Assembly: GCF_024700885.2 (NCBI RefSeq)
Contig: NZ_CP117016.1
DNA: 64,000 nt
Direction: 5' to 3' (one strand)
DNA from: Escherichia coli
GTDB taxonomy: Bacteria > Pseudomonadota > Gammaproteobacteria > Enterobacterales > Enterobacteriaceae
The first letter of the stretch is position 1, and every line of letters begins with the position of its first letter. Position numbers and translations under genes: made by a program. Shown one piece after another: positions 852 to 37,947 of this stretch. The notes beneath the pieces were generated by a model. The model saw nothing but the letters and a program-made list of their open reading frames with translations, searched no databases and was not told the DNA's origin.

Positions 852-879
852 ATTTATGTAAAATCAATAACATGATTAA

Positions 880-6151: not shown

Positions 6152-6171
6152 TTATCGCAAGAAGTATTTTA

Positions 6172-6189: not shown

Positions 6190-6331
6190 TATGCTTCCTG
6201 TCGCAGAGAACTATTCTTATATACCACAAAGAGATGTCATTTATTATATCGATGTAAATACTGATTAATTAAATGTAAATACAGCCATAACATCGTAGGT
6301 TCTCAGTGAGCCATTCTCAGGATAACTTTCT

Positions 6332-6607: not shown

Positions 6608-6683
6608 CGTCTGTCACATGGCAGGTGAACAATCATATCTGTTGATGATGTGAGCACCTGCCCAAATGATCCATCCTGAACTA

Positions 6684-6926: not shown

Positions 6927-7278
6927 AGCTCAACCTCCTGCCGCGCTAAAAAACCTGTAACTTCAGTCACTTTAATAGTAAGACAATCCTTAACCTCTGG
7001 CAATTTTTGCTAAGCATCAATGAAAACAGCATGTTAAATGCAAGACTGTTGCGTACGGAAAAATATTTACTTTGCACGATTAATAATCAGTAGCTGAAAG
7101 CAGTCAGCCAGTGATAAAGTACAGATACCGCATTCATGCTCCTCGTGGTTATGTCCTGACTAGTCTTTACACTCTTTACAGGAACCATTGTCGTACATGA
7201 TGGCCCAACCAATTGAGTGTACCGCTGTCGACATGGAATCTTCTGCGATACAACAATTCGTATCTACAGAAGGTAACT

Positions 7279-8199: not shown

Positions 8200-8554
8200 C
8201 AAACTGCTCTTACTCTTTCCCTCCTCAAATCAGCCATAATAACCTCATGGTTTTTATGGCTTTTTTCTTAAGGTTTTTTCCTTCGCTGAATCTCTAATTA
8301 TTACCGTCAGAAATTAAACTGTCGCCGATATGAGACACCTGTAAGTTACTAAAAGTAAATAAGAAAATGCCTCTTGTCTCGTTTCAGTTTTAGGCGTACA
8401 TTAGCGCCGTCTGGAGCAGTTTAGCTCAGAATTCTGGGGTGATGCCCACGGTAAAATACAGGACTTTTAAGGTCGTTTTGCCCGGTGTCAACTCACTGTA
8501 TCAGGTGTAATGAAGTCATTCAGGCGTAACAGTAATTACGCGGAGAGATGTAAA

Positions 8555-8626
8555 GTGAAATATTTCTTTATGGGCATTTCTTTTATGGTCATCGTTTGGG
8601 CCGGTACTTTTGCCCTGATGATCTAA
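8555..8626 (+). CDS. ypdK: Very small hydrophobic membrane protein, 23 aa
   Basis: GTG-initiated ORF encoding (M)KYFFMGISFMVIVWAGTFALMI, matching the K-12 small protein YpdK as I recall it. Confidence 0.5.
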   Translation: MKYFFMGISFMVIVWAGTFALMI

Positions 8627-8643
8627 AAGCAAACTGTGCAATG

Positions 8644-8679
8644 AAAAACAGGAGCCATCAGGCTCCTGTTTGCATTTTT
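8644..8679. terminator. Bidirectional rho-independent terminator between ypdK (+) and alaC (-)
   Basis: Stem aacaggagcc / ggctcctgtt (8647-8670) flanked by an A-run upstream and a T-run downstream. Confidence 0.55.
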
Positions 8680-8690
8680 GAGGTCGGTGT

Positions 8691-9929
8691 TTATTCCGCG
8701 TTTTCGTGAATATGTTTGCTGCTGGCGGGTAGTAAACCATCGGCACGGAACATCGCTTTAATCCCACGAATCGCCTGACGAATACGGTCGCGGTTTTCAA
8801 TCAGTGCAAAGCGAACATGCGTGTCGCCGTAGTCGCCAAAGCCAATCCCCGGAGAGACACAGACCTTCGCTTCGTTCAGCAGCTTCTTGGCAAATTCCAG
8901 CGAGCCCATGGCAGCATACGGTTCCGGGATTTTCGCCCAGACATACATCGAAGCCTTCGGCATTTCGACCATCCAGCCCGCTTCATGCAGCCCTTTTACC
9001 AGTACATCACGGCGGCGTTTGTACTGTTCAGCAATGTCGCGCACGCACTGTTGATCGCCCTCCAGCGCCGCAATCGCTGCCACCTGCAACGGCGTAAAGG
9101 TGCCGTAATCGTGATAGCTTTTAATACGTGCCAGCGCGCTGACCAGCGTTTTGTTGCCAACCATAAAGCCGATACGCCAGCCCGCCATGTTGTAGCTTTT
9201 CGACAGCGTAAAGAACTCGACCGCCACATCGCGTGCACCCGGCACCTGCATGATTGACGGCGCTTTCCAGCCATCGTAGACGATATCGGCATAGGCCAGG
9301 TCATGGACCACCAGCACATCGTAGCGTTTCGCCAGCGCCACAACCTTCTCAAAGAATTCCAGCTCCACGCATTGCGCGGTTGGATTCGACGGGAAGCCGA
9401 GGATCATCATCTTCGGTTTCGGATAACTTTCGCGAATGGCGCGTTCCAGTTCGTTGAAGAAATCGACACCTTCCACCAGCGGCACTGAGCGTACCTGCGC
9501 CCCGGCAATCACCGCGCCGTAAATATGAATCGGGTAGCTTGGATTAGGCACCAGTACAGTGTCACCATGATCCAGCGTCGCCAGCATCAGATGCGCCAGT
9601 CCCTCTTTCGAACCAATGGTGACGATGGCTTCTGATTCCGGGTCGATCTCGACGTCGTAGCGATCCTGATACCAGCGGGAAATGGCGCGACGTAACCGCG
9701 GAATGCCGCGTGAAGTAGAGTAACCATGCGTGTCCGGTCGCTGGGCCACCGTACATAATTTTTCGACGATATGCGGCGGAGTCGCACCGTCCGGGTTACC
9801 CATACTGAAATCGATAATATCTTCGCCGCGCCGACGCGCAGCCATTTTCAGTTCAGCGGTAATATTAAAAACGTAGGGCGGGAGACGATCAATGCGCGTA
9901 AAGCGACGTTCAAGGCGAGTGTCAGCCAT
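8691..9929 (-). CDS. alaC: Glutamate-pyruvate aminotransferase (PLP-dependent aminotransferase class I)
   Basis: 412-aa [51 protein letters not shown]; aminotransferase fold motifs. Confidence 0.9.
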
Positions 9930-10305: not shown

Positions 10306-12003
10306 GTGCACGAAATATTCAACATGCTGCTGGCGGTCTTCGATCGGGCAGCGTTAATGCTTATCTGCCTGTTCTTTCTCATCCGTATCCGCCTGTTTCG
10401 CGAACTGTTGCACAAGTCGGCACACTCACCGAAAGAGCTGCTCGCCGTTACCGCCATTTTCTCGCTGTTCGCCCTGTTCAGCACCTGGTCCGGCGTTCCC
10501 GTAGAAGGCTCGCTGGTGAACGTACGTATTATCGCGGTGATGTCAGGCGGGATTCTTTTTGGCCCGTGGGTAGGCATTATTACCGGCGTGATCGCAGGTA
10601 TTCACCGGTATTTAATTGATATCGGCGGCGTGACGGCGATCCCCTGCTTTATCACCAGCATTCTGGCGGGTTGTATATCGGGCTGGATCAACCTGAAAAT
10701 CCCCAAAGCACAGCGCTGGCGCGTCGGTATTCTCGGCGGCATGTTATGTGAAACGTTGACCATGATTCTGGTGATTGTCTGGGCACCAACTACCGCGTTG
10801 GGGATCGATATCGTCTCTAAAATCGGGATTCCAATGATCCTCGGTAGCGTCTGTATCGGCTTTATTGTGCTGCTGGTGCAAAGCGTTGAGGGCGAAAAAG
10901 AGGCCAGCGCCGCGCGGCAGGCCAAGCTGGCGCTGGATATCGCCAACAAAACGCTGCCGCTGTTTCGCCATGTCAATAGCGAGTCATTACGCAAAGTTTG
11001 TGAAATTATCCGCGATGATATTCATGCCGATGCGGTGGCGATTACCAATACCGATCATGTGCTGGCCTATGTTGGCGTGGGTGAACACAACTATCAGAAT
11101 GGCGATGACTTCATTAGCCCGACTACCCGACAGGCGATGAATTACGGAAAAATCATCATTAAAAACAATGATGAAGCCCACCGCACACCAGAGATTCATT
11201 CCATGCTGGTGATCCCATTGTGGGAGAAAGGCGTTGTGACCGGAACACTGAAAATTTACTACTGCCACGCGCATCAGATTACGTCATCATTACAGGAAAT
11301 GGCGGTCGGTCTGTCGCAAATCATCTCCACGCAACTGGAGGTTTCACGCGCCGAGCAGCTACGTGAAATGGCAAATAAGGCAGAGCTTCGCGCCCTGCAA
11401 AGCAAAATTAATCCCCATTTCCTGTTTAACGCTTTGAACGCTATTTCATCGTCGATCCGTCTGAATCCGGATACCGCTCGCCAGCTGATCTTTAATCTGT
11501 CGCGTTATCTACGCTATAACATTGAATTAAAAGACGATGAGCAAATCGATATCAAAAAAGAGCTGTATCAAATTAAAGACTATATTGCCATTGAGCAGGC
11601 CCGCTTTGGCGACAAGCTGACGGTTATCTATGATATTGATGAAGAGGTGAATTGCTGCATTCCCAGCCTGCTGATCCAACCGTTGGTGGAGAACGCCATT
11701 GTCCACGGTATTCAGCCTTGCAAAGGTAAAGGCGTTGTCACCATCAGCGTTGCAGAGTGCGGTAATCGGGTACGCATTGCGGTGCGGGATACCGGGCACG
11801 GCATCGATCCAAAAGTCATTGAGCGGGTCGAAGCGAACGAAATGCCGGGCAATAAAATTGGCCTGCTGAATGTCCATCATCGCGTGAAGTTATTGTATGG
11901 CGAGGGACTGCATATCCGCCGTCTGGAACCAGGAACGGAAATTGCGTTTTACATTCCTAACCAACGCACCCCTGTCGCCTCACAGGCTACGTTATTGCTT
12001 TGA
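10306..12003 (+). CDS. ypdA: Sensor histidine kinase, LytS-type (multi-TM N-terminus plus HATPase)
   Basis: 565-aa ORF, GTG start; hydrophobic N-terminal half and C-terminal kinase motifs ([17 protein letters not shown]). Confidence 0.85.
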
Positions 12004-12017
12004 GCCGGAGTGATATT

Positions 12018-12752
12018 GTGAAAGTCATCATTGTTGAAGACGAATTCCTGGCACAACAGGAACTGAGCTGGCTAATTAAAGAGCACAGCCAGATGGAGAT
12101 TGTCGGCACCTTTGACGACGGTCTGGACGTGTTGAAGTTTTTGCAGCATAACCGCGTCGACGCCATTTTTCTGGATATCAATATTCCGTCGCTGGACGGT
12201 GTGTTGCTGGCGCAAAACATCAGCCAGTTCGCCCATAAACCGTTTATTGTGTTCATCACCGCGTGGAAAGAACATGCGGTAGAAGCGTTTGAACTGGAAG
12301 CGTTTGACTACATTCTCAAACCGTATCAGGAGTCACGCATTACCGGGATGCTGCAAAAACTGGAAGCGGCCTGGCAGCAACAGCAGACCAGCAGTACGCC
12401 TGCCACGACGGTAACGCGTGAGAATGACACCATTAATCTGGTGAAAGATGAGCGAATAATCGTCACGCCAATTAACGATATCTATTACGCCGAAGCGCAC
12501 GAGAAAATGACCTTTGTCTATACGCGGCGTGAATCCTACGTAATGCCGATGAACATTACCGAGTTTTGCAGCAAGCTGCCGCCATCGCATTTTTTCCGCT
12601 GCCATCGCTCATTTTGTGTCAATCTGAACAAAATCCGCGAGATCGAACCGTGGTTTAATAACACCTATATTCTGCGGCTGAAAGATCTGGATTTTGAAGT
12701 GCCAGTCAGCCGCAGCAAAGTTAAAGAATTCCGCCAGTTAATGCATCTTTAA
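12018..12752 (+). CDS. ypdB: LytTR-family response regulator
   Basis: Receiver domain MKVIIVEDEFLAQQEL plus LytTR output domain; GTG at 12018 gives the expected 244 aa (six-frame ORF starts at 12000). Confidence 0.85.
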   Translation: MKVIIVEDEFLAQQELSWLIKEHSQMEIVGTFDDGLDVLKFLQHNRVDAIFLDINIPSLDGVLLAQNISQFAHKPFIVFITAWKEHAVEAFELEAFDYILKPYQESRITGMLQKLEAAWQQQQTSSTPATTVTRENDTINLVKDERIIVTPINDIYYAEAHEKMTFVYTRRESYVMPMNITEFCSKLPPSHFFRCHRSFCVNLNKIREIEPWFNNTYILRLKDLDFEVPVSRSKVKEFRQLMHL

Positions 12753-12764
12753 TCGGGAACTTTC

Positions 12765-13622
12765 ATGAAAGCACCAGGCTTGCCCGCCGATCAACAATTT
12801 TTCGCCGATCTGTTCAGCGGCCTGGTGCTTAACCCGCAACTACTGGGGCGCGTCTGGTTTGCCAGCCAGCCTGCCTCGTTACCGGTGGGCAGTTTATGTA
12901 TTGATTTTCCCCGTCTGGATATCGTGCTGCGCGGCGAATACGGCAATCTGCTGGAAGCAAAGCAGCAACGTATGGTTGAAGGAGAAATGCTGTTTATTCC
13001 AGCGCGCGCGGCTAATTTACCGATCAACAACAAACCGGTGATGCTGTTAAGCCTGGTGTTCGCACCGACCTGGCTTGGGTTATCGTTTTACGATAGCCGT
13101 ACCACGTCGTTGTTGCATCCTGCTCGCCAGATCCAACTTCCCAGCCTGCAACGCGGCGAAGGTGAAGCAATGCTTACTGCCCTCACCCATCTTAGCCGTT
13201 CGCCGCTGGAGCAGAATATCATTCAGCCGCTGGTGTTAAGTTTGCTGCATCTTTGCCGCAACGTGGTGAATATGCCGCCGGGTAATTCGCAGCCGCGCGG
13301 AGATTTTCTTTATCACAGCATTTGTAACTGGGTTCAGGATAATTATGCCCAGCCGCTCACCCGTGAGAGCGTGGCGCTGTTTTTTAATATCACGCCCAAT
13401 CATCTGTCAAAACTGTTTGCGCAGCATGGAACAATGCGTTTTATCGAATATGTGCGTTGGGTGCGAATGGCGAAGGCGAGGATGATTTTGCAGAAATATC
13501 ATCTGTCGATTCATGAAGTGGCGCAGCGTTGCGGCTTTCCGGACAGCGACTATTTTTGTCGCGTCTTCCGGCGTCAGTTTGGCCTGACGCCAGGAGAGTA
13601 CAGCGCCCGTTTTCAGGGCTAA
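12765..13622 (+). CDS. ypdC: AraC-family transcriptional regulator
   Basis: 285-aa ORF with C-terminal AraC-type HTH (YVRWVRMAKARMILQKYHLSIHEVAQRCGFPDSDYFCRVFRRQFGLTPGEY). Confidence 0.8.
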   Translation: MKAPGLPADQQFFADLFSGLVLNPQLLGRVWFASQPASLPVGSLCIDFPRLDIVLRGEYGNLLEAKQQRMVEGEMLFIPARAANLPINNKPVMLLSLVFAPTWLGLSFYDSRTTSLLHPARQIQLPSLQRGEGEAMLTALTHLSRSPLEQNIIQPLVLSLLHLCRNVVNMPPGNSQPRGDFLYHSICNWVQDNYAQPLTRESVALFFNITPNHLSKLFAQHGTMRFIEYVRWVRMAKARMILQKYHLSIHEVAQRCGFPDSDYFCRVFRRQFGLTPGEYSARFQG

Positions 13623-13624
13623 CG

Positions 13625-16120
13625 TCAGAAGGTTAATTCTGTTTCCAGCAGCGTCAGGATGCTTTGTGCATCTTGCGCGGCGAACAGCGACTGGCGGAAG
13701 TTTTTATTCACCAGTTTGCGCGCCAGCTGCGAGAAGACTTTCACATGGTTCATCCCTTCGTTAGCACCCAACGTCAGCATGATCACCAGTTCGACTTCGC
13801 CCATTTCTGACTGCCAGTCAACCGGTTTCACCAGCCGGGCAATGCTGATACTGGAATGACGGATCCACTGAGATTTGGTGTGCGGGATCGCTACGCCAAA
13901 ACCAACGCCGGTGGTAACAATCTCTTCCCGTTGCCAGACATCCTCTTCCAGCTCGAACGGATGTTCAGTGCGCCCGTTAACGCCGAGGTTACCGCACAGG
14001 AACTGGATCGCCTGCTCTTTATTGCTAAAGGCCTGATCAACGAAGATATTCTCCAGCGCCAGCAGCGGGCGAACGTCTTCTTCCGGCGTAAAGGCGGTGA
14101 GTAACGCTTCAATCTCCTGCGCGCTGCGACATTCACACGCCTGACGCGCCAGTTCCCGACACGCCTCGCTATCCAGTTGACGAAGCTGGCTTTTCACCGC
14201 CGGAATGCGCGGGCTACTCATACTCAGCTCATCCAAGCCCAGCCCAAGCAGTAGCGGCAGATAACGACTTTCACCGCCCAGTTCACCGCAAATACCTACC
14301 CATTTTCCGCGCTGATGCGCAGTGGTAATAATCTGCTGCAACATGCGCAGGAACGATGGCGTAATCGGGTTATACAGCGGCGATACGCGCGGGTTATTAC
14401 GATCGACCGCATACAGATACTGGGTCATATCGTTAGAACCGATACTGAAGAAATCGACCTCATCGCAGAAGTGGTCGATGATGTAGCACACCGACGGCAC
14501 TTCCACCATGATACCCAGCGTAATCGTCTCTGCATGACGCAGGCCATCGCGCTTAAGCTCAACGATCGCTTTTTGGATCTCGCCCTTCACCCATAAGATC
14601 TGATCGAGGCTGTGAACCATTGGGATCATCAACTGGGCGTTGCCGAAACTGGCGGCGCGCAAAATGGCCCGCAGTTGAGTGCGGAACAGGCCAGCAAATT
14701 CCGGGTAAATACGTACCGCGCGATAGCCGAGGAACGGGTTCTCTTCCTGGGGAATGTTGAGATAAGGAATGCTTTTATCGCCGCCGATGTCCATCGTGCG
14801 GAAGATAATCGGCTTGTCGCCCGCTGCCAGTAGCACCTGCTGGTAGGCTTCAAATTGCTCCTGCTCGTCCGGCGCGCTGTCGCGATCCATATAGAGCATT
14901 TCGGTACGGAACAGCCCGACGCCTTCCGCGCCGTTGGCAAACGCGCCAGGCGCTTCCAGAGCGGTGCCAATATTCGCCGCGATATCAATGCGCTTGTTAT
15001 CACGGGAATAGGCCAGCTGCGCGGCAGCCTGCGCCTGCTGCTGCTGACGTTTATCTGCCAGCGTCTGCGCAACCTGATAATAACCGCTCACCGCGTCATC
15101 AGGATTAATCGCCAGCACGCCGCACTGGGCGTCAAGCACTGCCGGTTGCCCGGCATAGCGCGCGATCGCATCCAGCGGCAAGCCACTTAGTACCGGGATC
15201 GCCGAGGCGCGGGCCAGAATCAGGGTATGCGAGGTGCGCCCGGTTTTCTCCAGAATCATGCCCGCAAGATTTTTTAAATCGAGGCTCAAAAACTGGCTTG
15301 GGGTTAAATCCTCGGCCACCAGAATAGTCGGTTTTTCCAGCACCAGATTGTTGCGCGGCTTCAGTTCCGGCCAGGTGATATGCAGCAACTGTTCGCTGAT
15401 ATCGCGAATGTCGCTGACCCGCTCGCGCAGATAATCGCTGGCAGAAGCAGATAGTTTGGCGCAAACCTGCTCCATATTGCTGATGATCGCCGCCCCCAGT
15501 CCCTGATGCTGTTCTGCCATAAGGCGACGGATATTGCCTGCAAATTCATCATCCTGAATCAGCGACAAATGGGCGCTGAGGATAGTTTTGCTTTCGCCGT
15601 CACGCTCGCGCAGTTGCTGGTTCAGTTGCTCGGCAAGCGTTGCCAGGCTGTGCTCCAGCCGGGTGGAGTCTTGCGCACTGGCCGGGATTGCCCGATAACT
15701 GTCGAGGCTGTCGCTCTGTAACAGGGTCAGCGTACCCACGCCGACGCCGCTTGCCAGCACATTGCCGTACAGTAAATCAGGATTCAGACGGCTTAATGAA
15801 CGCGGCAGCGGATGCGCCGTCAGTTCTACCTGCGTTGGCTGGACGCTGTCGCTGTCGATAAAGCGCACCTGGATGTACTCTTCCAGCACGCGCCGCGCCT
15901 GCTCTTCATCGCTGCCGCTAATGTTCAGGCTGCAACTGTCATTAAATAGGGTGCCGGTGCCAATCAGCGCCAGCGAGCTTTTCGCATCTGCCTTTGCGTT
16001 CTGGCGATGGTTGATGAAGGTGATTTCGCTTTGCCACTGGCTGCACTGTTCTTTAAGTTCCCACGCCGGACGAGCATGCAGACCGTTAGGCAGAGGACAG
16101 AGAAATTGAATCGTTAGCAT
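13625..16120 (-). CDS. fryA: Multiphosphoryl transfer protein of a fructose-like PTS (HPr, Enzyme I and IIA domains fused)
   Basis: 831-aa ORF; N-terminal HPr-like domain, central PEP-utilising Enzyme I region (GGRTSHTLILARA), C-terminal IIA-like domain. Confidence 0.85.
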   Translation of the reverse strand: MLTIQFLCPLPNGLHARPAWELKEQCSQWQSEITFINHRQNAKADAKSSLALIGTGTLFNDSCSLNISGSDEEQARRVLEEYIQVRFIDSDSVQPTQVELTAHPLPRSLSRLNPDLLYGNVLASGVGVGTLTLLQSDSLDSYRAIPASAQDSTRLEHSLATLAEQLNQQLRERDGESKTILSAHLSLIQDDEFAGNIRRLMAEQHQGLGAAIISNMEQVCAKLSASASDYLRERVSDIRDISEQLLHITWPELKPRNNLVLEKPTILVAEDLTPSQFLSLDLKNLAGMILEKTGRTSHTLILARASAIPVLSGLPLDAIARYAGQPAVLDAQCGVLAINPDDAVSGYYQVAQTLADKRQQQQAQAAAQLAYSRDNKRIDIAANIGTALEAPGAFANGAEGVGLFRTEMLYMDRDSAPDEQEQFEAYQQVLLAAGDKPIIFRTMDIGGDKSIPYLNIPQEENPFLGYRAVRIYPEFAGLFRTQLRAILRAASFGNAQLMIPMVHSLDQILWVKGEIQKAIVELKRDGLRHAETITLGIMVEVPSVCYIIDHFCDEVDFFSIGSNDMTQYLYAVDRNNPRVSPLYNPITPSFLRMLQQIITTAHQRGKWVGICGELGGESRYLPLLLGLGLDELSMSSPRIPAVKSQLRQLDSEACRELARQACECRSAQEIEALLTAFTPEEDVRPLLALENIFVDQAFSNKEQAIQFLCGNLGVNGRTEHPFELEEDVWQREEIVTTGVGFGVAIPHTKSQWIRHSSISIARLVKPVDWQSEMGEVELVIMLTLGANEGMNHVKVFSQLARKLVNKNFRQSLFAAQDAQSILTLLETELTF

Positions 16121-16144
16121 AACCGCTCCGGGTTAATCAGGAGA

Positions 16145-17182
16145 TCATCTGAAATCCGTCAGTTGAACAACCGTCTCACGCGTAAGACGTTGAATAAGGG
16201 CAGATAAAAGTTGCTGCATCTGCAAAATGTCGCGACAATCGGCAATCGATGCCGCGCAATGTCCGTGGCGGGTGGCAGGCCCCATCACCACTGTGGGTAC
16301 GCCAGTGCCGGTTAAGTGCACCGCCCCACCGTCCGTGCCACCGTTGCTGAACATATCCGCCTGCAACGGCACGCCAATTTCTGCCGCCACGGTTTCAATC
16401 CACGCGGTAAGTTTTGGCGGCGCAATCAGCGATTTATCGCTTAACACCAGCATCGGGCCGTTACCAATCTGACGATGGTTAGCCGCGCCATAATCAAAGT
16501 TTTTCGCCCAGCAGGCGGTATCAAGCACAATGGCGACATCCGGCGACACCGCGCGGGTGGCAGTTTGCCCGCCGCGTAATCCCACCTCTTCGCTGGAGCT
16601 GGCCACCAGCCACACTTCCGCAGGCAGTTCGGCATCATGCAGCTCACGTAGTAACGTCACCAGCAGATAGCAACCGAGGCGGTCATCAAAGGCTTTCCCC
16701 ATCACTCGCTGGTGGGGTAGAACCTGAAAAGTGGTATCGAAGGTGACGCGATCGCCTGGACGAATTCCCGCCTGCATCACTTCGTCATACGAGCGCGCGC
16801 CAATGTCCACGCGCATGGCGCTAACATCATTCCCCTGCCGGTCGTCGTCAAGCAGGCCTGGAATTTTGCACTCTTCACGGGTGGTGATGCGCACCGGCTG
16901 CAGCTGGCGGGCAGCCATGCGCACATTGCCAACCGGCAGCACGTCAATAGCCCCTTCGCGGGAGATGCTGCGCACCATAAATCCCACTTCATCCATATGC
17001 GCACAGATCATCACCTTCGGACCTGTCGACTCATTGAGTCGGATCAGCACCGATCCCAGCCCATCAAATCGCACTTCTTTTTGCAGGCGATCCGCTTCTT
17101 CCAGCAGGATCTGCCGTACTTCCTGTTCCGAGGAGGCGATCGCATCTGCCTCGCTCAACGCTTTTAATAGCGATAAATCCAT
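16145..17182 (-). CDS. ypdE: M42-family aminopeptidase
   Basis: 345-aa ORF with peptidase M42-like motifs; embedded in the fry operon. Confidence 0.8.
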
Positions 17183-18267
17183 TATGCCTCTCCCGTGAGC
17201 AACACTGTTTTCGGCATGGCGTAGAGCACTTCTGCTCCTTGCGGGGTAACCAGCACAACATCTTCGATGCGCACGCCCCCTTGCCCTGGCAAATAAATCC
17301 CCGGCTCCACGGTCAGCAACATGCCTGGCTGTAGCGTCGTGGTGTCCCGCGGTGAAAAACGCGGATCTTCATGGACTTCAATGCCGATAGCGTGACCGGT
17401 GTTATGACCGAAATAGTCGCCATAACCTGCTTCTGTAATGACCCGGCGCGCGGCGTCGTCAACCTGCTGGCAGCGCACGCCGGGGCGAATTGCAGAGATT
17501 GCTGCGAGCTGTGCTTGCAGGACAATCTGATAGACGTTAAACAGCGGGTGGGATTCGGCACTTACCCCTTCGCCATTCACCAGCAAGGTGCGCGTCATAT
17601 CAGAGCAGTAGCCCTGATACAGCGCACCAAAATCAAGAGTGACAAACTCGCCCGCTGCAACAATCTTGTCGCTGGCTTTACCGTGCGGCAGCGCGCCACG
17701 CCAGCCGCTGGCGACAATGGTATCGAAAGAGGCTTTTTCTGCGCCCTGCTGGCGCATAAACCACTCCAGTTCAGCGGCTATCTCGCGCTCGCTCATCCCC
17801 GCCTGAATAAAGCGGCGAATATGCTCAGCACCGCGATCGGCAATCCCACAGGCGAGGCGGATTTTCTCCACCTCCTCTGGCGTTTTGATTTGCCGCAGCA
17901 CATCCGGCGTGGCGCTAACCAGTTTCGCATTGAGTTCAGACTGCCAGCGGTGCGCGGTTTCCCAACTCACCTGCTGGCCTTCAAAACCGAGCGTTTGCAA
18001 CTGCTCATCGGCAATGATTTGATTGACGATAGTGGTAAGCGTGTTCGTCGCGTCAAGCAAATGCAGCTGGTAGCCTTGCGTGCGGGCTTCTACATCCGCG
18101 TAGTAGCGCGAATCCACCAGAATGTGCGCACTTACACGGCTAATCACCACATAGCCTGATCCGGTGGAGATCCCCAGATGCGGCTGTTTGTTCTGCCGTG
18201 AGGAGAGAAGCACCGCATCCAGTTGTTGCGCCTTAAGCCAGTCGCGCAGCGAAGCGAGTAATGTCAT
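17182..18267 (-). CDS. ypdF: Xaa-Pro aminopeptidase (M24 family)
   Basis: 361-aa ORF with M24 motifs ([13 protein letters not shown]); stop overlaps the ypdE start. Confidence 0.8.
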
Positions 18268-18281
18268 CAGGATTGTCCTTC

Positions 18282-19529
18282 TTACAGGCTATCGATTAAC
18301 AATTTGCCTTTACGGAACATCATCAGACGCAGGAACACCACCATCAGCGCAGTAATGACTGCCCCCAGCGCGATCCCCGCCATGTAGACGCCGAGGTTAG
18401 TGACCAGTGGCCATGCCCAGATAGCGGATTCCGGGAACCATTGCACTGCGCCCAGCCAGACTGCAGCGGTTGAGCCGACAATCGCGCCAACCATATAGGA
18501 CGGAATGGCGGTGATGGGACTTTCCAGTGCAAACGGAATCGCACCTTCACTGATCCCCATAAAGGCAAGGAACATGGCGGTTTTACCCTGCGGATAAAGC
18601 TGAGCGTTGAACAGGCGTTTGCCGGTTAAACGACGGTCAATAATGGTCGCCAGACCCAGACCAATCGGCGGAATAACAATAGCGATGGAACGTGCGGTGA
18701 CCGGTAATACGTGGTCCGTGGTAAAGCTGAAGGCAACGAAACCTGCGGCTTTGTTGATCGGGCCACCAAGGTCGATTGCTGTCGCCGCGGCGATCCCCAT
18801 CGCATACATTAGCGCGCCCTTCTCACCTGCGGCAGTCAGCACGGCACGAATACCGCCGTTGATCCAGCCACCAAAGGGGGTGATGACGTAGTACATCGCC
18901 AGCATGACAAAAATGGCGGAAAGAATCGGTAGCAAAAATGTGGTTTTGAACGCTAACAGGAAATCCGGTAACTGGATTTTCTGGTTCATCCACTTCACAA
19001 GGTAACCCGCAACGATAGAAATAATCAGGGCACCAATGAAGGTGGACGGCACCGGCGAAGAGGTCGCCCATTGCATCGTGCTGGGATCGAAGTTCAGCAG
19101 TTGCGTCGGCTGGGTAGACATCAAGCCGCCGATAAAACCAGCCGGGAACGCCAGTTTGCCACCGATAGAGTTCGCCACAAATGCAGCAAACATCGGAATG
19201 GCGAAACCAAACAACACGCCGCCGAAGGATTGCGACAGCCAGGCAAATTTCAGTAAGGAAAGGTCGAAACCGGAGAATTTCCCGCTATTAAGAGCATCCA
19301 TGATGCCGATATCAGCAGGAATTTTAAGCCAGCTATAAGCAATCAGCTGGCTGAAAGCGAGGATCACACCACCCATAATTAAGGTCGGCACCATGCGTGA
19401 AATCCCTGACATCACATGCTGCGGGAGTTCACCCCAGAAGCTGCTTTTAGAGGCCTGCGGATTCTTAACTGCCGCTGCCGCACCGGATGCGCCAGGCACA
19501 ACGGTTGCACTGCGTTTTTTAATGGCCAT
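18282..19529 (-). CDS. fryC: PTS fructose-like permease IIC component
   Basis: 415-aa polytopic membrane protein with EIIC-Fru-type sequence. Confidence 0.85.
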
Positions 19530-29556: not shown

Positions 29557-29763
29557 GAGTACACTACTCTCACTGATCGGGGTTTTCAGGCACACAAATA
29601 ATAAGTTTATTCGCATCGCGAAGCAAACAGGGGCCAGCCTGTTGCCGATTTTTCATCCAATGATGCTTTCACCAGGCGGCGCTAACCCGGACGTAGACTG
29701 TATTACAAAAGCGGCAAAAAGCAGAGACAAAAAACCCCCGCTTTACAGCGAGGGTTTGAAATT

Positions 29764-29839
<76 letters not shown>

Positions 29840-29878
29840 ACGATGCGTTTACGTACCAAATTTGCTGGGTGCAAAATT

Positions 29879-29954
<76 letters not shown>

Positions 29955-29986
29955 GTCACGTAAAGCTTGACGAGTTGACGGGCGGC

Positions 29987-30015
29987 ATCATATGAATTCC
30001 GCCCGAATGTGTCAA
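29987..30015 (-). promoter_or_regulatory. Putative sigma-70 promoter of the alaW-alaX tRNA operon
   Basis: On the minus strand TTGACA-17 nt-TATGAT followed by a GC-rich discriminator (gccgccc), about 30 nt upstream of the mature tRNA 5' end. Confidence 0.45.
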
Positions 30016-30174
30016 CGGCAAATTGCAACGTGTAGTTTCAATCGCTGAAAAATCAGGCAAATGAACAATTTTGGAAAACCGCTCGCATTCAGTAGTTATT
30101 CATGTCACGGTTTCCTGTAAAGTGGTGTTATAAAATGAACGACTAATAGACCCACATACATTCAGGGAATTGTT

Positions 30175-30534
30175 ATGTTCAAGGAGAGGATGACACCAGA
30201 TGAACTTGCCAGACTGACCGGCTATAGCCGCCAGACCATTAATAAATGGGTACGCAAGGAAGGCTGGACAACGTCACCAAAACCTGGCGTCCAGGGTGGC
30301 AAAGCCCGACTGGTTCACGTCAATGAACAGGTTCGTGAATATATTCGCAATGCTGAACGTCCAGAAGGTCAGGGAGAAGCGCCTGCCCTGTCTAGTGATG
30401 CGCCGCTTGAAGTGTTGCTGGTGACACTGGCGAAAGAGATGACGCCAGTTGAACAAAAACAGTTTACATCCTTGCTTCTGCGGGAAGGGATTATCGGATT
30501 ATTACAACGCTTAGGGATTCGCGATAGCAAATAA
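30175..30534 (+). CDS. yfeC: Small putative DNA-binding protein
   Basis: 119-aa ORF (start may be the internal MTPDELARL); paralogous to the next ORF (shared ELA..G....QTINKW/RWIREKGW and GG(K/R)ARL motifs). Confidence 0.7.
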   Translation: MFKERMTPDELARLTGYSRQTINKWVRKEGWTTSPKPGVQGGKARLVHVNEQVREYIRNAERPEGQGEAPALSSDAPLEVLLVTLAKEMTPVEQKQFTSLLLREGIIGLLQRLGIRDSK

Positions 30535-30535
30535 T

Positions 30536-30928
30536 ATGAAAAGATTACGCAATAAAATGACCACCGAAGAACTGGCTGAATGCCTCGGTGTGGCTAAACA
30601 AACTGTTAACCGTTGGATCAGAGAAAAAGGCTGGAAAACGGAAAAATTTCCTGGCGTGAAAGGCGGTCGTGCCAGACTTATTCTGGTCGATACGCAAGTT
30701 TGCGAGTTTATTCAGAACACGCCTGCGTTCCATAACACACCAATGTTGATGGAAGCTGAAGAGAGAATTGCTGAATACGCTCCTGGAGCACGCGCCCCGG
30801 CGTATCGACAAATCATCAGCGCAATAGACAACATGACTCACAGTGAGCAGGAAAAAGTTGCGCAATTTTTGTCACGCGAAGGAATTCGCAATTTCCTCGC
30901 CCGTCTCGATATTGACGAATCAGCATAA
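30536..30928 (+). CDS. yfeD: Small putative DNA-binding protein, paralogue of YfeC
   Basis: 130-aa ORF MKRLRNKMTTEELAECLGVAKQTVNRWIREKGWKTEKFPGVKGGRARL. Confidence 0.7.
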   Translation: MKRLRNKMTTEELAECLGVAKQTVNRWIREKGWKTEKFPGVKGGRARLILVDTQVCEFIQNTPAFHNTPMLMEAEERIAEYAPGARAPAYRQIISAIDNMTHSEQEKVAQFLSREGIRNFLARLDIDESA

Positions 30929-30978
30929 ATAAAAAACGGCAGGGGTATCTCTCCTGCCGTTTATCTTTTATGCGCTAA

Positions 30979-32394
30979 TTACTGCTGATTTTCGCGTTCA
31001 GCAATAAAAGCCAGCGCTTTGTTGATACGCTCGATACTGCGGGTCTTACCAATTGCGTGAACGGTAACATCCAGTGCTGGAGACTGCCCCGCACCGGTTA
31101 CGGCGACACGCAGCGGCATACCAACTTTACCCATACCCACTTCCAGCTCATCCGCCGTCGCCTGAATAGCGTGATGAACGTTTTCAGCGGTCCAGTCAGT
31201 AATCGCAGTCAGTTTGTCACGAACCACTTCCAGCGGCTGACGCGCAACCGGACGCAGATGTTTTTTCGCGGCGTCGGCATCGAACTCAGTAAAATCTTCG
31301 TAGAAATAGCGGCAGCTCTGTGCCATCTCTTTCAGCGTCTTGCAGCGTTCACCCAGTAGTTTCACCAGATCAGCCAGCTGCGGGCCGTTACGGGTATCGA
31401 TATTTTCCTGCTCAATGTGCCACTGTAAGTGAGTAGCAACATACTCCGGCGGCAGCGCGTTAATGTAGTGATGGTTCAGCCACAGCAGCTTGTCGGTGTT
31501 GAACGCACTGGCAGATTTGCTGACGGCATTCAGAGTGAAGTATTTGATCATCTCTTCACGAGTGAAGATTTCCTGATCGCCGTGGGACCAGCCCAGACGC
31601 ACCAGATAGTTCAGCAGTGCTTCGGGCAAATAACCGTCATCACGATACTGCATTACGCTGACCGCCCCGTGACGTTTGGACAGTTTTTTACCGTCATCGC
31701 CGTTGATCATAGAAACGTGCGCGTAAACCGGTACCGGCGCTTTCAGGGCTTTAAGAATGTTGATCTGGCGTGGCGTGTTGTTGATATGGTCTTCGCCACG
31801 GATAACATGGGTGATTTCCATATCCCAGTCGTCAACCACCACACAGAAGTTATAGGTTGGGGAACCATCGGTACGGCGAATGATCAGATCATCCAGCTCC
31901 TGGTTGCTGAACTCGATCGGGCCACGGATCTGATCGTCAAAAACAACAGAACCTTCCTGCGGGTTAGCAAAACGTACAACGCACGGTTCATCATCAGCAT
32001 GATGCTCATGGCTGTGGCGGCAGCGACCGTCATAACGCGGCTTCTCACCTTTCGCCATTTGCTCTTCGCGCAGCGCTTCCAGGCGCTCTTTAGAGCAATA
32101 GCATTTATAAGCAGTGCCCTCTTCCAGCATCTGATCGATCACCGCGTTGTAGCGATCAAAACGTTTGGTCTGGTAGTACGGACCTTCATCCCACTCCAGG
32201 CTCAGCCAGTTCATGCCATCCATAATGGCTTCGATAGCTTCCGGCGTGGAACGCTCAAGATCGGTGTCTTCAATACGCAGCACGAACTCACCGCCGTGGT
32301 TACGTGCAAAAAGCCAGGAGTAAAGAGCAGTACGCGCGCCGCCAACGTGCAGATAGCCTGTTGGGCTTGGCGCGAAGCGAGTTTTGATTTTCAT
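30979..32394 (-). CDS. gltX: Glutamyl-tRNA synthetase
   Basis: 471-aa [34 protein letters not shown] with HVGG (HIGH-type) and KLSKR (KMSKS-type) class I motifs. Confidence 0.9.
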
Positions 32395-32607
32395 GAAATG
32401 GCCTTACGTTTAGAAAGATGCCGACAACCGGCAAATCCTGGAAAAATTGAGTGGGCGATATTCTATCACTCCCGCCTGATTCCTCAATGTAGTTCGGGTT
32501 GCAACCTTACGCATTATTGTTTTCGTTGACAAATTGCGCAACACGGTCTGTTTTGCGATCATCTTGCTTAAATTTACGACGAACGAACAATTTCTTTAGA
32601 AAATGCG

Positions 32608-32635
32608 TTGACTCATTTTGAACTCTCCCTATAAT
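32608..32635 (+). promoter_or_regulatory. Putative sigma-70 promoter of the valU-valX-valY-lysV tRNA operon
   Basis: TTGACT (32608-32613), 16-nt spacer, TATAAT (32630-32635), GC-rich discriminator, about 17 nt upstream of the first tRNA. Confidence 0.55.
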
Positions 32636-32652
32636 GCGACTCCACACAGCGG

Positions 32653-32728
32653 GGGTGATTAGCTCAGCTGGGAGAGCACCTCCCTTACAAGGAGGGGGTC
32701 GGCGGTTCGATCCCGTCATCACCCACCA
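32653..32728 (+). tRNA. valU: tRNA-Val (anticodon TAC)
   Basis: GGGTGATTAGCTCAGCTGGGAGAGCACCTCCCTTACAAGGAGGGGGTCGGCGGTTCGATCCCGTCATCACCCACCA. Confidence 0.9.
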
Positions 32729-32772
32729 ACTACTTTATGTAGTCTCCGCCGTGTAGCAAGAAATTGAGAAGT

Positions 32773-32848
32773 GGGTGATTAGCTCAGCTGGGAGAGCACC
32801 TCCCTTACAAGGAGGGGGTCGGCGGTTCGATCCCGTCATCACCCACCA
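32773..32848 (+). tRNA. valX: tRNA-Val (anticodon TAC)
   Basis: Identical 76-nt copy. Confidence 0.9.
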
Positions 32849-32894
32849 CTTTCTCGCCAGCTAAATTTCTTGTAAAAATGTGAAGTACCGAAGT

Positions 32895-32970
32895 GGGTGA
32901 TTAGCTCAGCTGGGAGAGCACCTCCCTTACAAGGAGGGGGTCGGCGGTTCGATCCCGTCATCACCCACCA
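32895..32970 (+). tRNA. valY: tRNA-Val (anticodon TAC)
   Basis: Identical 76-nt copy. Confidence 0.9.
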
Positions 32971-32974
32971 CTTC

Positions 32975-33050
32975 GGGTCGTTAGCTCAGTTGGTAGAGCA
33001 GTTGACTTTTAATCAATTGGTCGCAGGTTCGAATCCTGCACGACCCACCA
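32975..33050 (+). tRNA. lysV: tRNA-Lys (anticodon TTT)
   Basis: GGGTCGTTAGCTCAGTTGGTAGAGCAGTTGACTTTTAATCAATTGGTCGCAGGTTCGAATCCTGCACGACCCACCA, 4 bp after valY. Confidence 0.9.
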
Positions 33051-33054
33051 ATGT

Positions 33055-33081
33055 AAAAAAGCGCCCTAAAGGCGCTTTTTT
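33055..33081 (+). terminator. Rho-independent terminator of the tRNA operon
   Basis: aaaaaa-GCGCC-ctaaa-GGCGC-tttttt. Confidence 0.7.
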
Positions 33082-33082
33082 G

Positions 33083-33206
33083 CTATCTGCGATACTCAAA
33101 GATTCGAACCTGCAGCAGGTTCGAGTTGAGCGCAGCGAAACAACGGAGCCGCTCGCGGCGACGGCCCGAAGGGCGAGCGAAGCGAGTCATCCTGCACGAC
33201 CCACCA
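33083..33206. repeat. Scrambled tRNA-Lys-derived fragments ending in a second copy of the tRNA 3' end
   Basis: gattcgaacctgc (33101-33113) is the reverse complement of the lysV T-arm; gcaggttcga (33115-33124) is a direct T-arm fragment; atcctgcacgacccacca (33189-33206) duplicates lysV 33033-33050. Confidence 0.6.
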
Positions 33207-33213
33207 ACAATGT

Positions 33214-33240
33214 AAAAAAGCGCCCTAAAGGCGCTTTTTT
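33214..33240 (+). terminator. Second, duplicated copy of the tRNA-operon terminator
   Basis: Same aaaaaa-GCGCC-ctaaa-GGCGC-tttttt hairpin following the duplicated tRNA 3' end. Confidence 0.6.
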
Positions 33241-33273
33241 ACTATATGCGGTTTGTAAGATTGATTTTTCTTC

Positions 33274-33300
33274 TCAAGTTCCTTGTTCTTCTGCCGATAT
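33274..33300 (+). promoter_or_regulatory. Candidate sigma-28 (FliA) promoter upstream of the FlxA-like ORF
   Basis: TCAAGTTC-N11-GCCGATAT against the sigma-28 consensus TAAAGTTT-N11-GCCGATAA; about 30 nt upstream of the ATG. Confidence 0.45.
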
Positions 33301-33328
33301 TACCTCGTACAGTGACGAGGACTGAACA

Positions 33329-33670
33329 ATGGCCACTATCTCTTCAACTTCAATTCCTTCCATACAAACACAGAGTAGTAACAGGGCATCAGAAGGTAGC
33401 GATGTTGCTTCACAAATTGCGCGGATAAGTCAGCAAATCATCAAACTCACTCAACAAATTAAAGAGATTGCAGACACTAGCGGCAGTGCTGAAGACAAGC
33501 AAAAACAGGCCGAATTGATTCAGCAGCAAATCACCCTACTGGAAACACAACTGGCGCAGTTGCAGAGACAGCAGGCAGAAAAAGCGCAGGAGAAAGAGCA
33601 GCGTTTGTCTCTGAATGCATCCCTTCCAAATCCTGTTGAAAAAACGACTCATATCGATATCTATATCTGA
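33329..33670 (+). CDS. FlxA-like small coiled-coil protein (Gln/Glu-rich, conserved ...THIDIYI C-terminus)
   Basis: 113-aa ORF with SD GAGGA 7 nt upstream; heptad-like Q/L/E repeats ([29 protein letters not shown]); resemblance to FlxA is from memory, not alignment. Confidence 0.45.
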
Positions 33671-34587
33671 TACAGCGGATCCCCTTCCCGCCCAGCCATT
33701 AGCGCACGGCCCTGGTCTCGTACCACGTCCCATAACGCTTCAGCGGCGGTGGAAAGTGAACGGTTCTTCCTGCGCACCAGCATCAACTGGCGTTCAACCA
33801 CCGGCGTAATGCGCTTTACCACCAGTGGGCTACCTTCAGGCAATGGTAGCGCCAGTGCGGGAAGAATACTGATGCCGATGCCTGCGGCTACCATCGGGAA
33901 CAGCGTCGCCGGATGTCCAATCTCCTGCACAATATTCACCTGAATACCATTGCGCGCCAGCGCTGCGTCAATCAGCGGTCGGCTGCCTGACGCGTAATCC
34001 TGCAACACCAATTTCGCTCCCTGTAATGCCTGCCAGGGTACATAATCTTCCACGGCCAAAGCGCTATCGCGATGGCAAAGCAGAAAGAAAGGCTCGGAAA
34101 GAATCGCTTCACATTGCAGATCGCCCACTGGGCCTGGATCGATGACGATGCCAAAGTCGACATCTCCCTGACGAATACTTTCCATCACCCACTGCTGCGG
34201 ACGATCGTGCAGGACAAACTGAATATCTGGATAGCGGCGATGGCTTTCAGCAATGCATTGCGGAATAAGATGCGCGGAAATGGTCTGGCTGGCAGCGACC
34301 CGAACTTTTCCGCTCAGTTGTTGCCCCATACGCCCGGTATCGCGCAACGTGCTGTTAAGTTCATCCAGCAGTCGCTCAAGACGCAAAGCCAACTGCTGCC
34401 CTGCATCTGTAAGCACCACTTCACGCGTGGTTCTGTCCAGCAGGCGAACACCAGTATGATTTTCCAGCTCCTTCACACTGTGACTTACTGCCGACTGGCT
34501 CAGGCCGATACGCTCTCCTGCACGACTAAAACTTTTCTCCTGCGCTACTGTGACGAAAACCTTTAATTGTTTTAAAGAATAATTCAT
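33661..34587 (-). CDS. yfeR: LysR-family transcriptional regulator
   Basis: 308-aa ORF with N-terminal LysR HTH ([38 protein letters not shown]); divergent from yfeH. Confidence 0.8.
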
Positions 34588-34676
34588 CTGTTTTCTTCAT
34601 GAATGGATGCAATAAATCAATTTTATTTCTCAAACTGGAAGAAGCACAATAGAACCATCGATCATCTGGAGTCTTT

Positions 34677-35675
34677 ATGAAACTTTTTCGTATCCTCGAT
34701 CCTTTCACCTTAACCCTGATCACGGTGGTGTTGCTGGCCTCTTTCTTTCCGGCCAGAGGCGATTTCGTCCCCTTCTTTGAAAATCTGACCACCGCAGCGA
34801 TTGCCCTGCTGTTTTTTATGCACGGCGCGAAGTTGTCGCGTGAGGCGATTATTGCTGGCGGTGGTCACTGGCGACTGCATTTGTGGGTAATGTGCAGCAC
34901 TTTCGTGCTGTTTCCGATTCTGGGTGTACTGTTTGCCTGGTGGAAACCGGTAAATGTCGACCCGATGCTCTACTCCGGTTTTCTCTACTTGTGCATTCTC
35001 CCGGCTACCGTGCAGTCTGCAATCGCCTTTACTTCAATGGCGGGCGGTAACGTCGCGGCAGCAGTTTGTTCTGCGTCAGCATCCAGCCTGTTGGGGATTT
35101 TCCTTTCACCATTGCTGGTTGGTCTGGTGATGAATGTTCACGGTGCGGGAGGCAGCCTTGAGCAGGTCGGTAAAATTATGCTGCAATTGCTGCTGCCGTT
35201 TGTATTGGGGCATCTTTCCCGGCCGTGGATTGGTGACTGGGTGTCGCGCAATAAAAAATGGATTGCGAAAACTGACCAGACGTCCATTCTGTTGGTGGTT
35301 TATACAGCGTTCAGCGAAGCCGTCGTTAATGGTATCTGGCATAAAGTTGGCTGGGGATCATTGCTGTTTATCGTGGTGGTCAGCTGCGTTCTTCTGGCTA
35401 TCGTGATTGTAGTTAACGTCTTTATGGCACGCCGACTGGGCTTCAATAAGGCAGATGAAATTACTATCGTCTTTTGTGGTTCGAAAAAGAGTCTGGCAAA
35501 TGGCATCCCGATGGCAAACATTCTTTTCCCCACATCGGTGATCGGTATGATGGTGCTGCCTCTGATGATTTTCCATCAGATCCAATTGATGGTCTGTGCG
35601 GTGCTGGCGCGTCGATACAAACACCAGACCGAACAGTTACAGGCGCAGCAGGAAAGCCGCGCCAATAAAGCTTAA
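34677..35675 (+). CDS. yfeH: Bile acid:sodium symporter (BASS) family membrane protein
   Basis: 332-aa polytopic membrane ORF. Confidence 0.8.
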   Translation: MKLFRILDPFTLTLITVVLLASFFPARGDFVPFFENLTTAAIALLFFMHGAKLSREAIIAGGGHWRLHLWVMCSTFVLFPILGVLFAWWKPVNVDPMLYSGFLYLCILPATVQSAIAFTSMAGGNVAAAVCSASASSLLGIFLSPLLVGLVMNVHGAGGSLEQVGKIMLQLLLPFVLGHLSRPWIGDWVSRNKKWIAKTDQTSILLVVYTAFSEAVVNGIWHKVGWGSLLFIVVVSCVLLAIVIVVNVFMARRLGFNKADEITIVFCGSKKSLANGIPMANILFPTSVIGMMVLPLMIFHQIQLMVCAVLARRYKHQTEQLQAQQESRANKA

Positions 35676-35890
35676 AGAGGACGCTTCAGGGGCTGGACCA
35701 GTTGCGTCAGCCCCTCAGTTTTAATCAGCAGCGTGATTTGCATTAGCTCACCGAGCTTCCCTGCCGGGAACTCATCTTTGCGGGCAAACCACAGAAGATA
35801 CTCCTCCGGCAGGTCGATTAAGCGACGCCCTTTGTATTTGCCAAACGGCATTATCGTATTGGCTATTTCAATCAGCTGCTCTTTTTCCAT
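35672..35890 (-). CDS. ypeB: Small conserved protein (DUF3820-like) immediately downstream of ligA
   Basis: Internal ATG gives 72 aa (MEKEQLIEIANTIMPFGKYKGRRLIDLPEEYLLWFARK...); start is 1 nt after the ligA stop. Confidence 0.6.
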   Translation of the reverse strand: MEKEQLIEIANTIMPFGKYKGRRLIDLPEEYLLWFARKDEFPAGKLGELMQITLLIKTEGLTQLVQPLKRPL

Positions 35891-35891
35891 C

Positions 35892-37916
<2,025 letters not shown>

Positions 37917-37923
37917 TCAATGC

Positions 37924-37947
37924 TAAAAACCCCCGACAAGCGGGGGT
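37924..37947 (-). terminator. Putative terminator downstream of zipA
   Basis: Stem cccccg / cggggg with a T-run on the minus strand (complement of aaaaa at 37925-37929). Confidence 0.4.

Follow-up and report, generated by a model that had tools for sequence, protein, structure and literature searches.

The interval between the tRNA gene lysV and the regulator gene yfeR is very probably the site of a two-allele polymorphism of the core chromosome of Escherichia coli, at which the strain studied here carries the minority allele; the FlxA-like gene that forms this allele would be the older occupant of the site, and recombination in the flanks would be the route by which the alleles are swapped. 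The stretch analyzed, called the window below, comprises 64,000 nucleotides of contig NZ_CP117016.1. The features on which the argument depends are listed in Table 1.

Two alleles between one pair of breakpoints

From about 29.7 to 38 kb, the window corresponds to the E. coli gltX-ligA core region, with yfeH (an SBF-like transporter), ypeB and ligA to the right of yfeR. The valU-valX-valY-lysV operon is the conserved left flank of a variable interval, and yfeR is its conserved right flank. Between the end of lysV (33050) and the stop codon of yfeR (from 33661) there are 610 bp, in agreement with the 0.6 kb or so given by an earlier reading of the letters made without database searches (hereafter the sequence-only reading). 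The same reading had given the K-12 order as lysV followed by xapR, xapB, xapA and yfeN before yfeR. The annotation of K-12 MG1655 (NC_000913.3) bears this out: it runs lysV, xapR, xapB, xapA, yfeN, yfeR, yfeH, ypeB, ligA, so that yfeR does not adjoin lysV, and the lysV-yfeR gap amounts to 4,601 bp.

The whole-locus alignment to K-12 MG1655 that the sequence-only reading had proposed gave two collinear blocks around a swapped segment (blastn). Window positions 29723-33263 are collinear with positions 1-3539 of the K-12 locus (L001) at 98.1% identity, up to 210 bp past lysV, and positions 33660-37930 with L001 7930-12200 at 98.3%, starting at the yfeR stop codon. Between these blocks, 4,390 bp of K-12 (L001 3540-7929) correspond to only 396 bp of the window. 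The left breakpoint lies about 20 bp past the terminator that ends lysV/RtT, and the right breakpoint falls exactly on the stop codon of yfeR, K-12 homology resuming at 33660/33661. Searches of the 64-kb window with the K-12 block and its four proteins (blastn, tblastn) detected no xap/yfeN homology at the DNA or protein level, the sole match being that of XapR to its LysR paralogue YfeR (28%); the absence of the xapR-xapB-xapA-yfeN block, as first noticed by eye, is thus confirmed. Residual homology between the two alleles, sought as an explanation for the junction, was limited to a 13-nt chance match. As another gene fills the site, the difference is a replacement and not a clean deletion. 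The same xap-less structure recurs at 100% identity in many complete genomes, which excludes an assembly artefact, and the xap-less interval is a structural fact that involves no statistical signal.

Table 1. Features at the lysV-yfeR interval, in window coordinates.
Feature	Position	Strand	Basis and remarks
gltX	30979-32394	-	left of the tRNA operon
valU-valX-valY-lysV tRNA operon	32653-33050	+	ARAGORN and Rfam tRNA matches; same order as in the K-12 annotation
lysV	32975-33050	+	last gene of the tRNA operon (ARAGORN)
Terminator-like GC-rich hairpin with T-run, AAAAAAGCGCC-CTA-AGGCGCTTTTTT	33055-33081	+	read off the sequence, directly 3' of lysV
RtT repeat unit	33081-33206	+	Rfam RF00391, 51.6 bits against a gathering score of 45, E = 8.7e-09
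Second terminator-like hairpin copy	33212-33242	.	terminator scan match on the minus strand, 14-pair stem
Allele-specific segment, 396 bp, 43.9% GC	33264-33659	.	blastn breakpoints against L001 3539/7930
Predicted sigma-28 (FliA)-type promoter, TCAAGTTC-N11-GCCGATAT	33274-33300	+	pattern match, 55 nt before the ATG
FlxA-like gene, 113 aa, predicted coiled-coil, C-terminal IDIYI	33329-33670	+	PF14282, E = 4.8e-15
yfeR, 308-aa LysR regulator	33661-34587	-	ORF list, Pfam PF00126 and PF03466, K-12 annotation

The contents of the 610 bp were correctly described beforehand as a duplicated tRNA end and a FlxA-like ORF, which are a second copy of the lysV 3' end (33189-33241 with the terminator) and an ORF of 113 aa. 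The first of these belongs to an RtT unit, which matched RF00391 over its full length (model positions 1-130) and above the membership threshold. This unit begins 31 nt past lysV and ends in ATCCTGCACGACCCACCA, the last 18 nt of lysV (33189-33206 being a copy of 33033-33050); it is thus placed downstream of a tRNA gene whose own 3' end it repeats. The label given to the site by PGAP in matching genomes is 'RtT sRNA'. The hairpin directly after lysV has an identical element in K-12, and the second hairpin copy closes the RtT unit.

The sequence-only reading had counted the duplicated tRNA end as part of the strain-specific segment. This attribution does not hold, because the RtT unit, with its duplicated lysV end, also stands at this position in K-12 (47.3 bits), and the duplication is therefore no part of the difference between the window and K-12. 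Also, the unit is missing in the B strain T7Express, EDL933, E24377A and LF82, where the gap shrinks to 451-452 bp (B, EDL933, E24377A) or 4,447 bp (LF82), the gaps with the unit present being 610 bp (window) and 4,601 bp (K-12). With junction-specific queries, it was found in 379 of 1,307 genomes carrying the FlxA allele and in 1,911 of 4,066 carrying the xap allele. The RtT unit is a separate polymorphism, which varies independently of the xap/FlxA state, and it would most likely be gained or lost when the two copies of the tRNA 3' end and terminator recombine unequally.

Distribution of the alleles and the lineage question

The survey covered 5,426 complete E. coli genomes, the main counts being taken at a coverage of at least 80% and the window's 398-bp segment serving as the query for the FlxA-like allele. 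The K-12 xap/yfeN block was present in 4,066 genomes (4,099 with any match) and the FlxA-like segment in 1,307 (1,316 with any match). Of the 5,426 genomes, 5,373 have one of these two alleles, whose breakpoints are identical, and the two any-match sets sum to 5,415, about 99% of the genomes, with an overlap that is at most minimal, so that the states exclude each other almost completely. The xap blocks of E. coli sort into two classes, one at least 99% identical (n = 2,434) and one 90-95% identical (n = 1,642), and these haplotypes differ by 7%. The FlxA-like allele is carried by O157:H7 EDL933, O55:H7, E24377A and the BL21-type B strain T7Express, and the xap allele by K-12, O111:H11 and LF82. 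Other variants seen at the site were IS insertions (H31) and an expanded nucleoside cluster in cryptic Escherichia (L008). One genome (HH97) had been considered as an intermediate, as it gave 84% partial matches to both alleles; it contains scrambled, error-laden copies with long poly-T and is likely an assembly artefact.

That E. coli strains differ in their xapABR content has been published before. One pan-genome study reported xapB/xapR in about 51% of phylogroup A, 45% of B1, 100% of C and 0% of B2, D and E (PMC9602453). We doubt the figure for B2, since LF82 has a 93%-identical xap block, and the published 0% probably reflects clustering thresholds.

Absence of the xap block had been taken to place this strain outside the K-12 lineage. 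We measured divergence in 12 kb of flanking sequence (gltX to lysV plus yfeR to ptsI), where K-12 differs by 0.37% from E. coli B, 0.53% from E24377A (FlxA allele), 0.85% from EDL933 and 1.52% from LF82 (xap allele). The argument from the missing genes fails on the B strain, which has the same FlxA-like allele as the window although its flanks lie 0.37% from those of K-12. Indeed, K-12 and B are identical over about 8.5 kb to the left of lysV, and to the right they show 3 differences in the first 155 bp of yfeR and then 0 for 2.5 kb, yet their alleles are different; the three differences in yfeR are not allele-linked. Both alleles also occur within another pair of close relatives, O111:H11 and E24377A. 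Since K-12 and B are nearly identical in the flanks and carry different alleles, the allele is no lineage marker. As the swap is confined to the interval, crossovers would have fallen very close to the breakpoints, which points to an exchange by recombination with no import tract visible. The separation of the window from K-12 is shown by other observations: its flanks diverge by 1.2-1.6% from all five references (1.2% from K-12), and along 24 kb it matches about 22 genomes at 100% identity, several of O166:H15 among them, hence an O166:H15-type lineage. The window contains no Clermont marker genes.

The FlxA-like gene and its predicted sigma-28 promoter

The FlxA-like ORF matched Pfam PF14282 with 55.9 bits, well over the gathering cut-off of 26.3, along profile positions 4-82 of 101, and RefSeq genomes annotate a 'FlxA-like family protein' at the site. 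The family is small: an exhaustive HMMER search of 1.84 billion representatives gave 88 clusters at E up to 0.001. The last 10 bp of the gene overlap the 3' end of yfeR, and the same 10-bp overlap was seen in five further loci (L005, L016, L017, L020, L021). A phage origin found no support in a tblastn search of 50,697 phage records, which returned no match.

Syntenic orthologues place this gene at the lysV site in at least five genera. In Pseudocitrobacter faecalis, an orthologue 86% identical occupies the interval between the lysV operon and yfeR; those of Enterobacter roggenkampii and Yokenella regensburgei are 54% and 47% identical, respectively, and that of Cedecea colo is 50% identical, in a genome where yfeR and yfeH are missing and the gene abuts ypeB-ligA. 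Three contigs (L016, L018, L020) also show the same arrangement of the FlxA-like gene beside the valU..lysV operon. The comparison with P. faecalis gave a dN/dS of 0.13 and a dS of 0.52 for the FlxA-like gene, with dS values of 0.74 for yfeR and 0.83 for gltX in the flanks. These values indicate that the gene is under purifying selection, with a dS comparable to that of its neighbors. Divergence between the window and P. faecalis is even, at 10-17% per 200 bp, so that the FlxA allele behaves like the flanks.

Upstream of the gene, the predicted promoter fits the FliA pattern TAAAGTTT-N11-GCCGATAA at a suitable distance, and this pattern has 1 match in the 64-kb window versus 0.05 expected by chance. 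The promoter of K-12 flxA, TAAAGATT-N11-GCCGATAG, has the same geometry. FliA sites of the same layout are reported for flgKL (TCAAGTCC...GCCGATAA) and motA (...GCCGATAT), and the flxA gene of the K-12 Qin prophage is an experimentally established FliA target of unknown function (PMC4183435). The element is kept, at -54 to -56 relative to the start codon, in Pseudocitrobacter, Enterobacter and other syntenic orthologues, the Cedecea version being TAACATTT-N11-GCCGATAA; in B and E24377A, the -10 element is ACCGATAT, not GCCGATAT. Judging from promoter sequence and conservation, the FlxA-like gene is probably controlled by FliA. A hairpin in the 5' UTR (CCUCGU-N6-ACGAGG, over the Shine-Dalgarno) was considered as a regulator and rejected, as it folds no better than shuffled sequences (z = -0.84).

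Origin of the two states and comparison with known systems

A YfeR-based contig scan, which needed exact 8-residue matches and had E. albertii, E. fergusonii and Salmonella outside its sample, yielded 7 loci. Both states occur in Pseudocitrobacter: P. vendiensis shows yfeR-yfeN-xapA-xapB-xapR-lysV and P. faecalis yfeR-flxA-like-lysV; these alleles share the E. coli junctions, and each is collinear with its E. coli counterpart. The xap block stands at the site also in Citrobacter sp. MGH106 (xapA-xapB-xapR, without yfeN) and in a cryptic Escherichia only 88-91% identical to K-12, where an enlarged block includes an extra nucleoside symporter and a deoxyribosyltransferase-like gene. Given its presence at the site in these organisms and in P. 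vendiensis, both alleles are old.

Divergence along the xap block is uneven. K-12 and P. vendiensis show 51-58 differences per 300 positions in xapR and in the 3' end of yfeR, but in the 3' half of xapB the counts fall to 5/300 and 9/299; across xapB-xapA, LF82 differs less from P. vendiensis (12-13/300) than from K-12 (23-26/300). The block thus looks like a mosaic exchanged between genera, and xapR-xapA, sporadic in its distribution, has been classed as a case of repeated horizontal transfer (PMC2395238). The high divergence of xapR between K-12 and P. vendiensis, the same as that of the flanks, is compatible with a long residence. Since FlxA-like synteny is wide, the xap block mosaic and the divergence of the FlxA allele flank-like, we think it probable from these distribution and divergence patterns that the FlxA-like gene is the older occupant in the Enterobacteriaceae and that the xap/yfeN module came later as a replacement. 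The direction implied by the sequence-only reading, a K-12 block lost from this strain, is probably the reverse of what happened, the FlxA-like gene being present at the site in so many genera.

We propose the following scheme for E. coli. The first allele, that of K-12 and about 75% of genomes, is a 4.4-kb nucleoside module made of the activator XapR, the xanthosine/H+ symporter XapB, the xanthosine phosphorylase XapA, and YfeN; the second, that of the window and about 24% of genomes, spans 0.4 kb and has just one small gene, of the FlxA family, behind a predicted FliA (sigma-28)-type promoter. Because the breakpoints are identical and the alleles scattered, as judged from named reference strains, we infer that lineages exchange the alleles through homologous recombination within the conserved sequences on either side, the tRNA operon and yfeR, and that site-specific integration would not be the route. 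The xap/yfeN module itself would have moved between genera after replacing the FlxA-like gene.

The alternative that survives best, although we regard it as improbable, is a long-lived balanced polymorphism, in which niche-dependent selection would have kept both alleles since before the split of Escherichia and Pseudocitrobacter with little horizontal movement. The occurrence of both alleles in both genera with identical junctions agrees with it, as does the flank-like collinearity of each pair at about 85%. However, parts of the xap block are only 1.7-3% divergent between genera, compared with 17-18% in the flanks, and this argues for transfer, as do the 7% that separate the E. coli xap haplotypes; moreover, the scatter of alleles among near-identical E. 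coli backgrounds needs recent exchange. A broader speculation, which we find rather doubtful, combines exchange with selection: the site would be an ancient cassette site of the Enterobacteriaceae where an ancestral, FliA-controlled FlxA-like gene has been replaced repeatedly, across genera, by the xap/yfeN module, and where niche-dependent selection keeps both at intermediate frequency in E. coli and Pseudocitrobacter, a motility-regulon gene and purine-nucleoside scavenging being mutually exclusive alternatives.

tRNA genes are classic targets of genomic islands, and the flank of lysV had been called a replacement hotspot. Replacement stands, as a different gene occupies the site; the hotspot does not, with two cargos, no integrase and no flanking repeats. 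That islets were inserted at lysV by a recombinase and left the duplicated lysV 3' end as an att scar has, in our view, very little probability. A direct repeat of the lysV 3' end does exist and GC is below average in both alleles (43.9% in the FlxA-like segment and 47.4% in the xap allele, against 51.2% in the window), but the repeat brackets only the 126-nt RtT unit, which lies to the left of both alleles and is also found in K-12, and the right breakpoint is the stop codon of a protein gene, with no tRNA repeat. No integrase or recombinase was found between gltX and ligA in the window, K-12, B, EDL933, E24377A or LF82, nor did any direct repeats (attL/attR) bound the variable segment. In place of many alternative cargos, the site holds two in 99% of genomes, with one breakpoint pair. 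Equally hard to credit is a simple deletion of xapR-xapB-xapA-yfeN from a K-12-like ancestor that left the FlxA-like ORF at the scar as junk or a by-product. In its favor, most E. coli have the xap allele, which is also found at the site in Citrobacter and Pseudocitrobacter, and the window segment is short and AT-rich; but its 396 bp are without homology to the xap block and so hold no remnant of it, its ORF is a Pfam FlxA member under purifying selection across genera, and promoter and syntenic position are kept in Enterobacter, Yokenella, Cedecea and Pseudocitrobacter.

Two alleles exchanged through their flanks, the reading that we prefer, make this an ordinary and common presence/absence polymorphism of limited importance, in which the K-12 arrangement is not the default. 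It carries a warning, namely that xap absence is unsuitable as a lineage marker, and it makes the duplicated tRNA end an RtT unit and no integration scar. As YfeN is a Tsx-family nucleoside channel, the K-12 block is a coherent functional unit of outer-membrane channel, inner-membrane symporter, phosphorylase and activator. Going by what is established about the xap regulon, the strain of the window is predicted to be without XapA/XapB-dependent uptake or cleavage of xanthosine, and O157:H7 and B/BL21-type carriers are likewise predicted to be without XapA and XapB, which bears on work on the metabolism of xanthosine, nicotinamide riboside and nucleoside analogues. Also, the strain is predicted to have one extra gene of the late flagellar regulon; the conserved sigma-28 promoter suggests one likely further member of the flagellar regulon in carrier strains.

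The xapABR xanthosine regulon of E. coli K-12 was described by Seeger, Poulsen and Dandanell (1995), as cited in PMC9602453 and PMC2395238. In K-12, this module sits at exactly the lysV site where the window is without xapA, xapB, xapR and yfeN. The published reports do not say what fills the site in its place, where exactly the breakpoints fall, or that yfeN belongs to the swapped unit. RefSeq annotation of a 'FlxA-like family protein' and an 'RtT sRNA' at the site predates our analysis, which adds where exactly the breakpoints lie, that the RtT unit varies on its own, that synteny extends across genera along with a conserved predicted sigma-28 promoter, and which polarity is likely.

Like tRNA-associated genomic islands, the locus has variable DNA beside a tRNA gene and a GC content below that of its surroundings; unlike them, it has no integrase and no bounding att repeats, and it consists of two fixed alleles of 0.4 and 4.4 kb. 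The RtT repeats of the tyrT operon (RF00391) share with the present unit its position after a tRNA gene and its ending in a copy of the tRNA 3' end plus terminator, but here the unit follows lysV, is single, and is polymorphic in its presence among E. coli. Among known systems, the window's gene is comparable to flxA of the K-12 Qin prophage, a member of the same family (PF14282) with 45% protein identity over the coiled-coil core, the same end (T)IDIY(I/V) and a shared promoter architecture (8-nt -35 element, 11-nt spacer, GCCGATAn). The K-12 gene lies in a cryptic prophage, whereas the FlxA-like gene described here is chromosomal and syntenic across genera beside the tRNA operon.

Mosaic structure of the xap block

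The interval between lysV and yfeR holds either the xap block (xapR-xapB-xapA-yfeN) or the FlxA-like gene, and our data indicate that the xap block is a mosaic between genera. The K-12 interval was compared with those of LF82 and of Pseudocitrobacter vendiensis, both of which carry the xap allele. Between E. coli K-12 and P. vendiensis the 3′ half of xapB diverged by only 1.7-3%, and xapR and yfeR by approximately 17-19%. Also, xapB-xapA of LF82 was nearer to P. vendiensis than to K-12.

We also detected a third, bigger version of the locus in a record labelled E. coli SCPM-O-B-8794. The record is 88-91% identical to K-12, but its xapB-xapA reach only 77%. Two extra genes lie between yfeN and xapA: one encodes a nucleoside:H+ symporter (PF03825), and the other resembles nucleoside 2-deoxyribosyltransferase genes (PF05014).

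The HH97 interval, taken from a genome recorded as "complete", most likely constitutes a misassembly: the FlxA-like region appeared as scrambled, error-rich partial copies, and the interval also contained a 200-bp fragment resembling xapB and long stretches of poly-T.

Coordinates of the features in the window and in the compared loci
Feature	Locus	Position	Remark
valX	window	32773-32848	
valX counterpart	LF82 (L013)	9669-9744	middle tRNA-Val copy
RtT unit	window	33081-33242	
5′ UTR hairpin CCUCGU-N6-ACGAGG	window	33303-33320	takes in Shine-Dalgarno GAGGA of the FlxA-like gene
FlxA-like gene/yfeR overlap	window	33661-33670	10 bp
Compared interval	K-12 (L014)	13329-18900	
Enlarged locus	SCPM-O-B-8794 (L008)	10966-17560	
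lysV-yfeR interval	HH97 (L002)	8300-9520	
IS200/IS605 tnpA/tnpB pair	EDL933 (L011)	6117-7758	between yfeD and gltX
yfeR	EDL933 (L011)	10399-11325	annotated pseudogene, internal stop

The repeat after lysV and the neighbouring tRNA genes

The RtT unit, a repeat that follows lysV, was found at this site with the FlxA-like allele in 379 of 1,307 genomes and with the xap allele in 1,911 of 4,066. Its presence or absence is thus independent of the allele. This suggests that the tRNA 3′ end and terminator, which occur here in two copies, recombined unequally and that the unit was gained or lost in this way.

In LF82, a single A-to-G substitution changed the anticodon of the valX counterpart from TAC to TGC, the remainder being identical to valX of the window. 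The gene is therefore called tRNA-Ala by ARAGORN and RefSeq; it is an Ala anticodon on a Val-type body. In the EDL933 assembly compared here, only 1 of the 2 tRNA-Ala(GGC) genes is present. An IS3-like IS1397 transposase is annotated in genomes identical to the window, within the stretch matching positions 22000-46000.

The FlxA-like gene and its junction with yfeR

The stem of the hairpin in the 5′ UTR of the FlxA-like gene is kept in P. faecalis, and the fold of this hairpin was no better than that of shuffled sequence (z = -0.84).

The FlxA-like gene and yfeR are convergent and overlap at their ends, an arrangement kept in Pseudocitrobacter, Enterobacter, Yokenella and further contigs. Antisense read-through from the FlxA-like gene into yfeR may occur. 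No terminator lies between the two genes in the window, whereas in K-12 a hairpin separates yfeN and yfeR.
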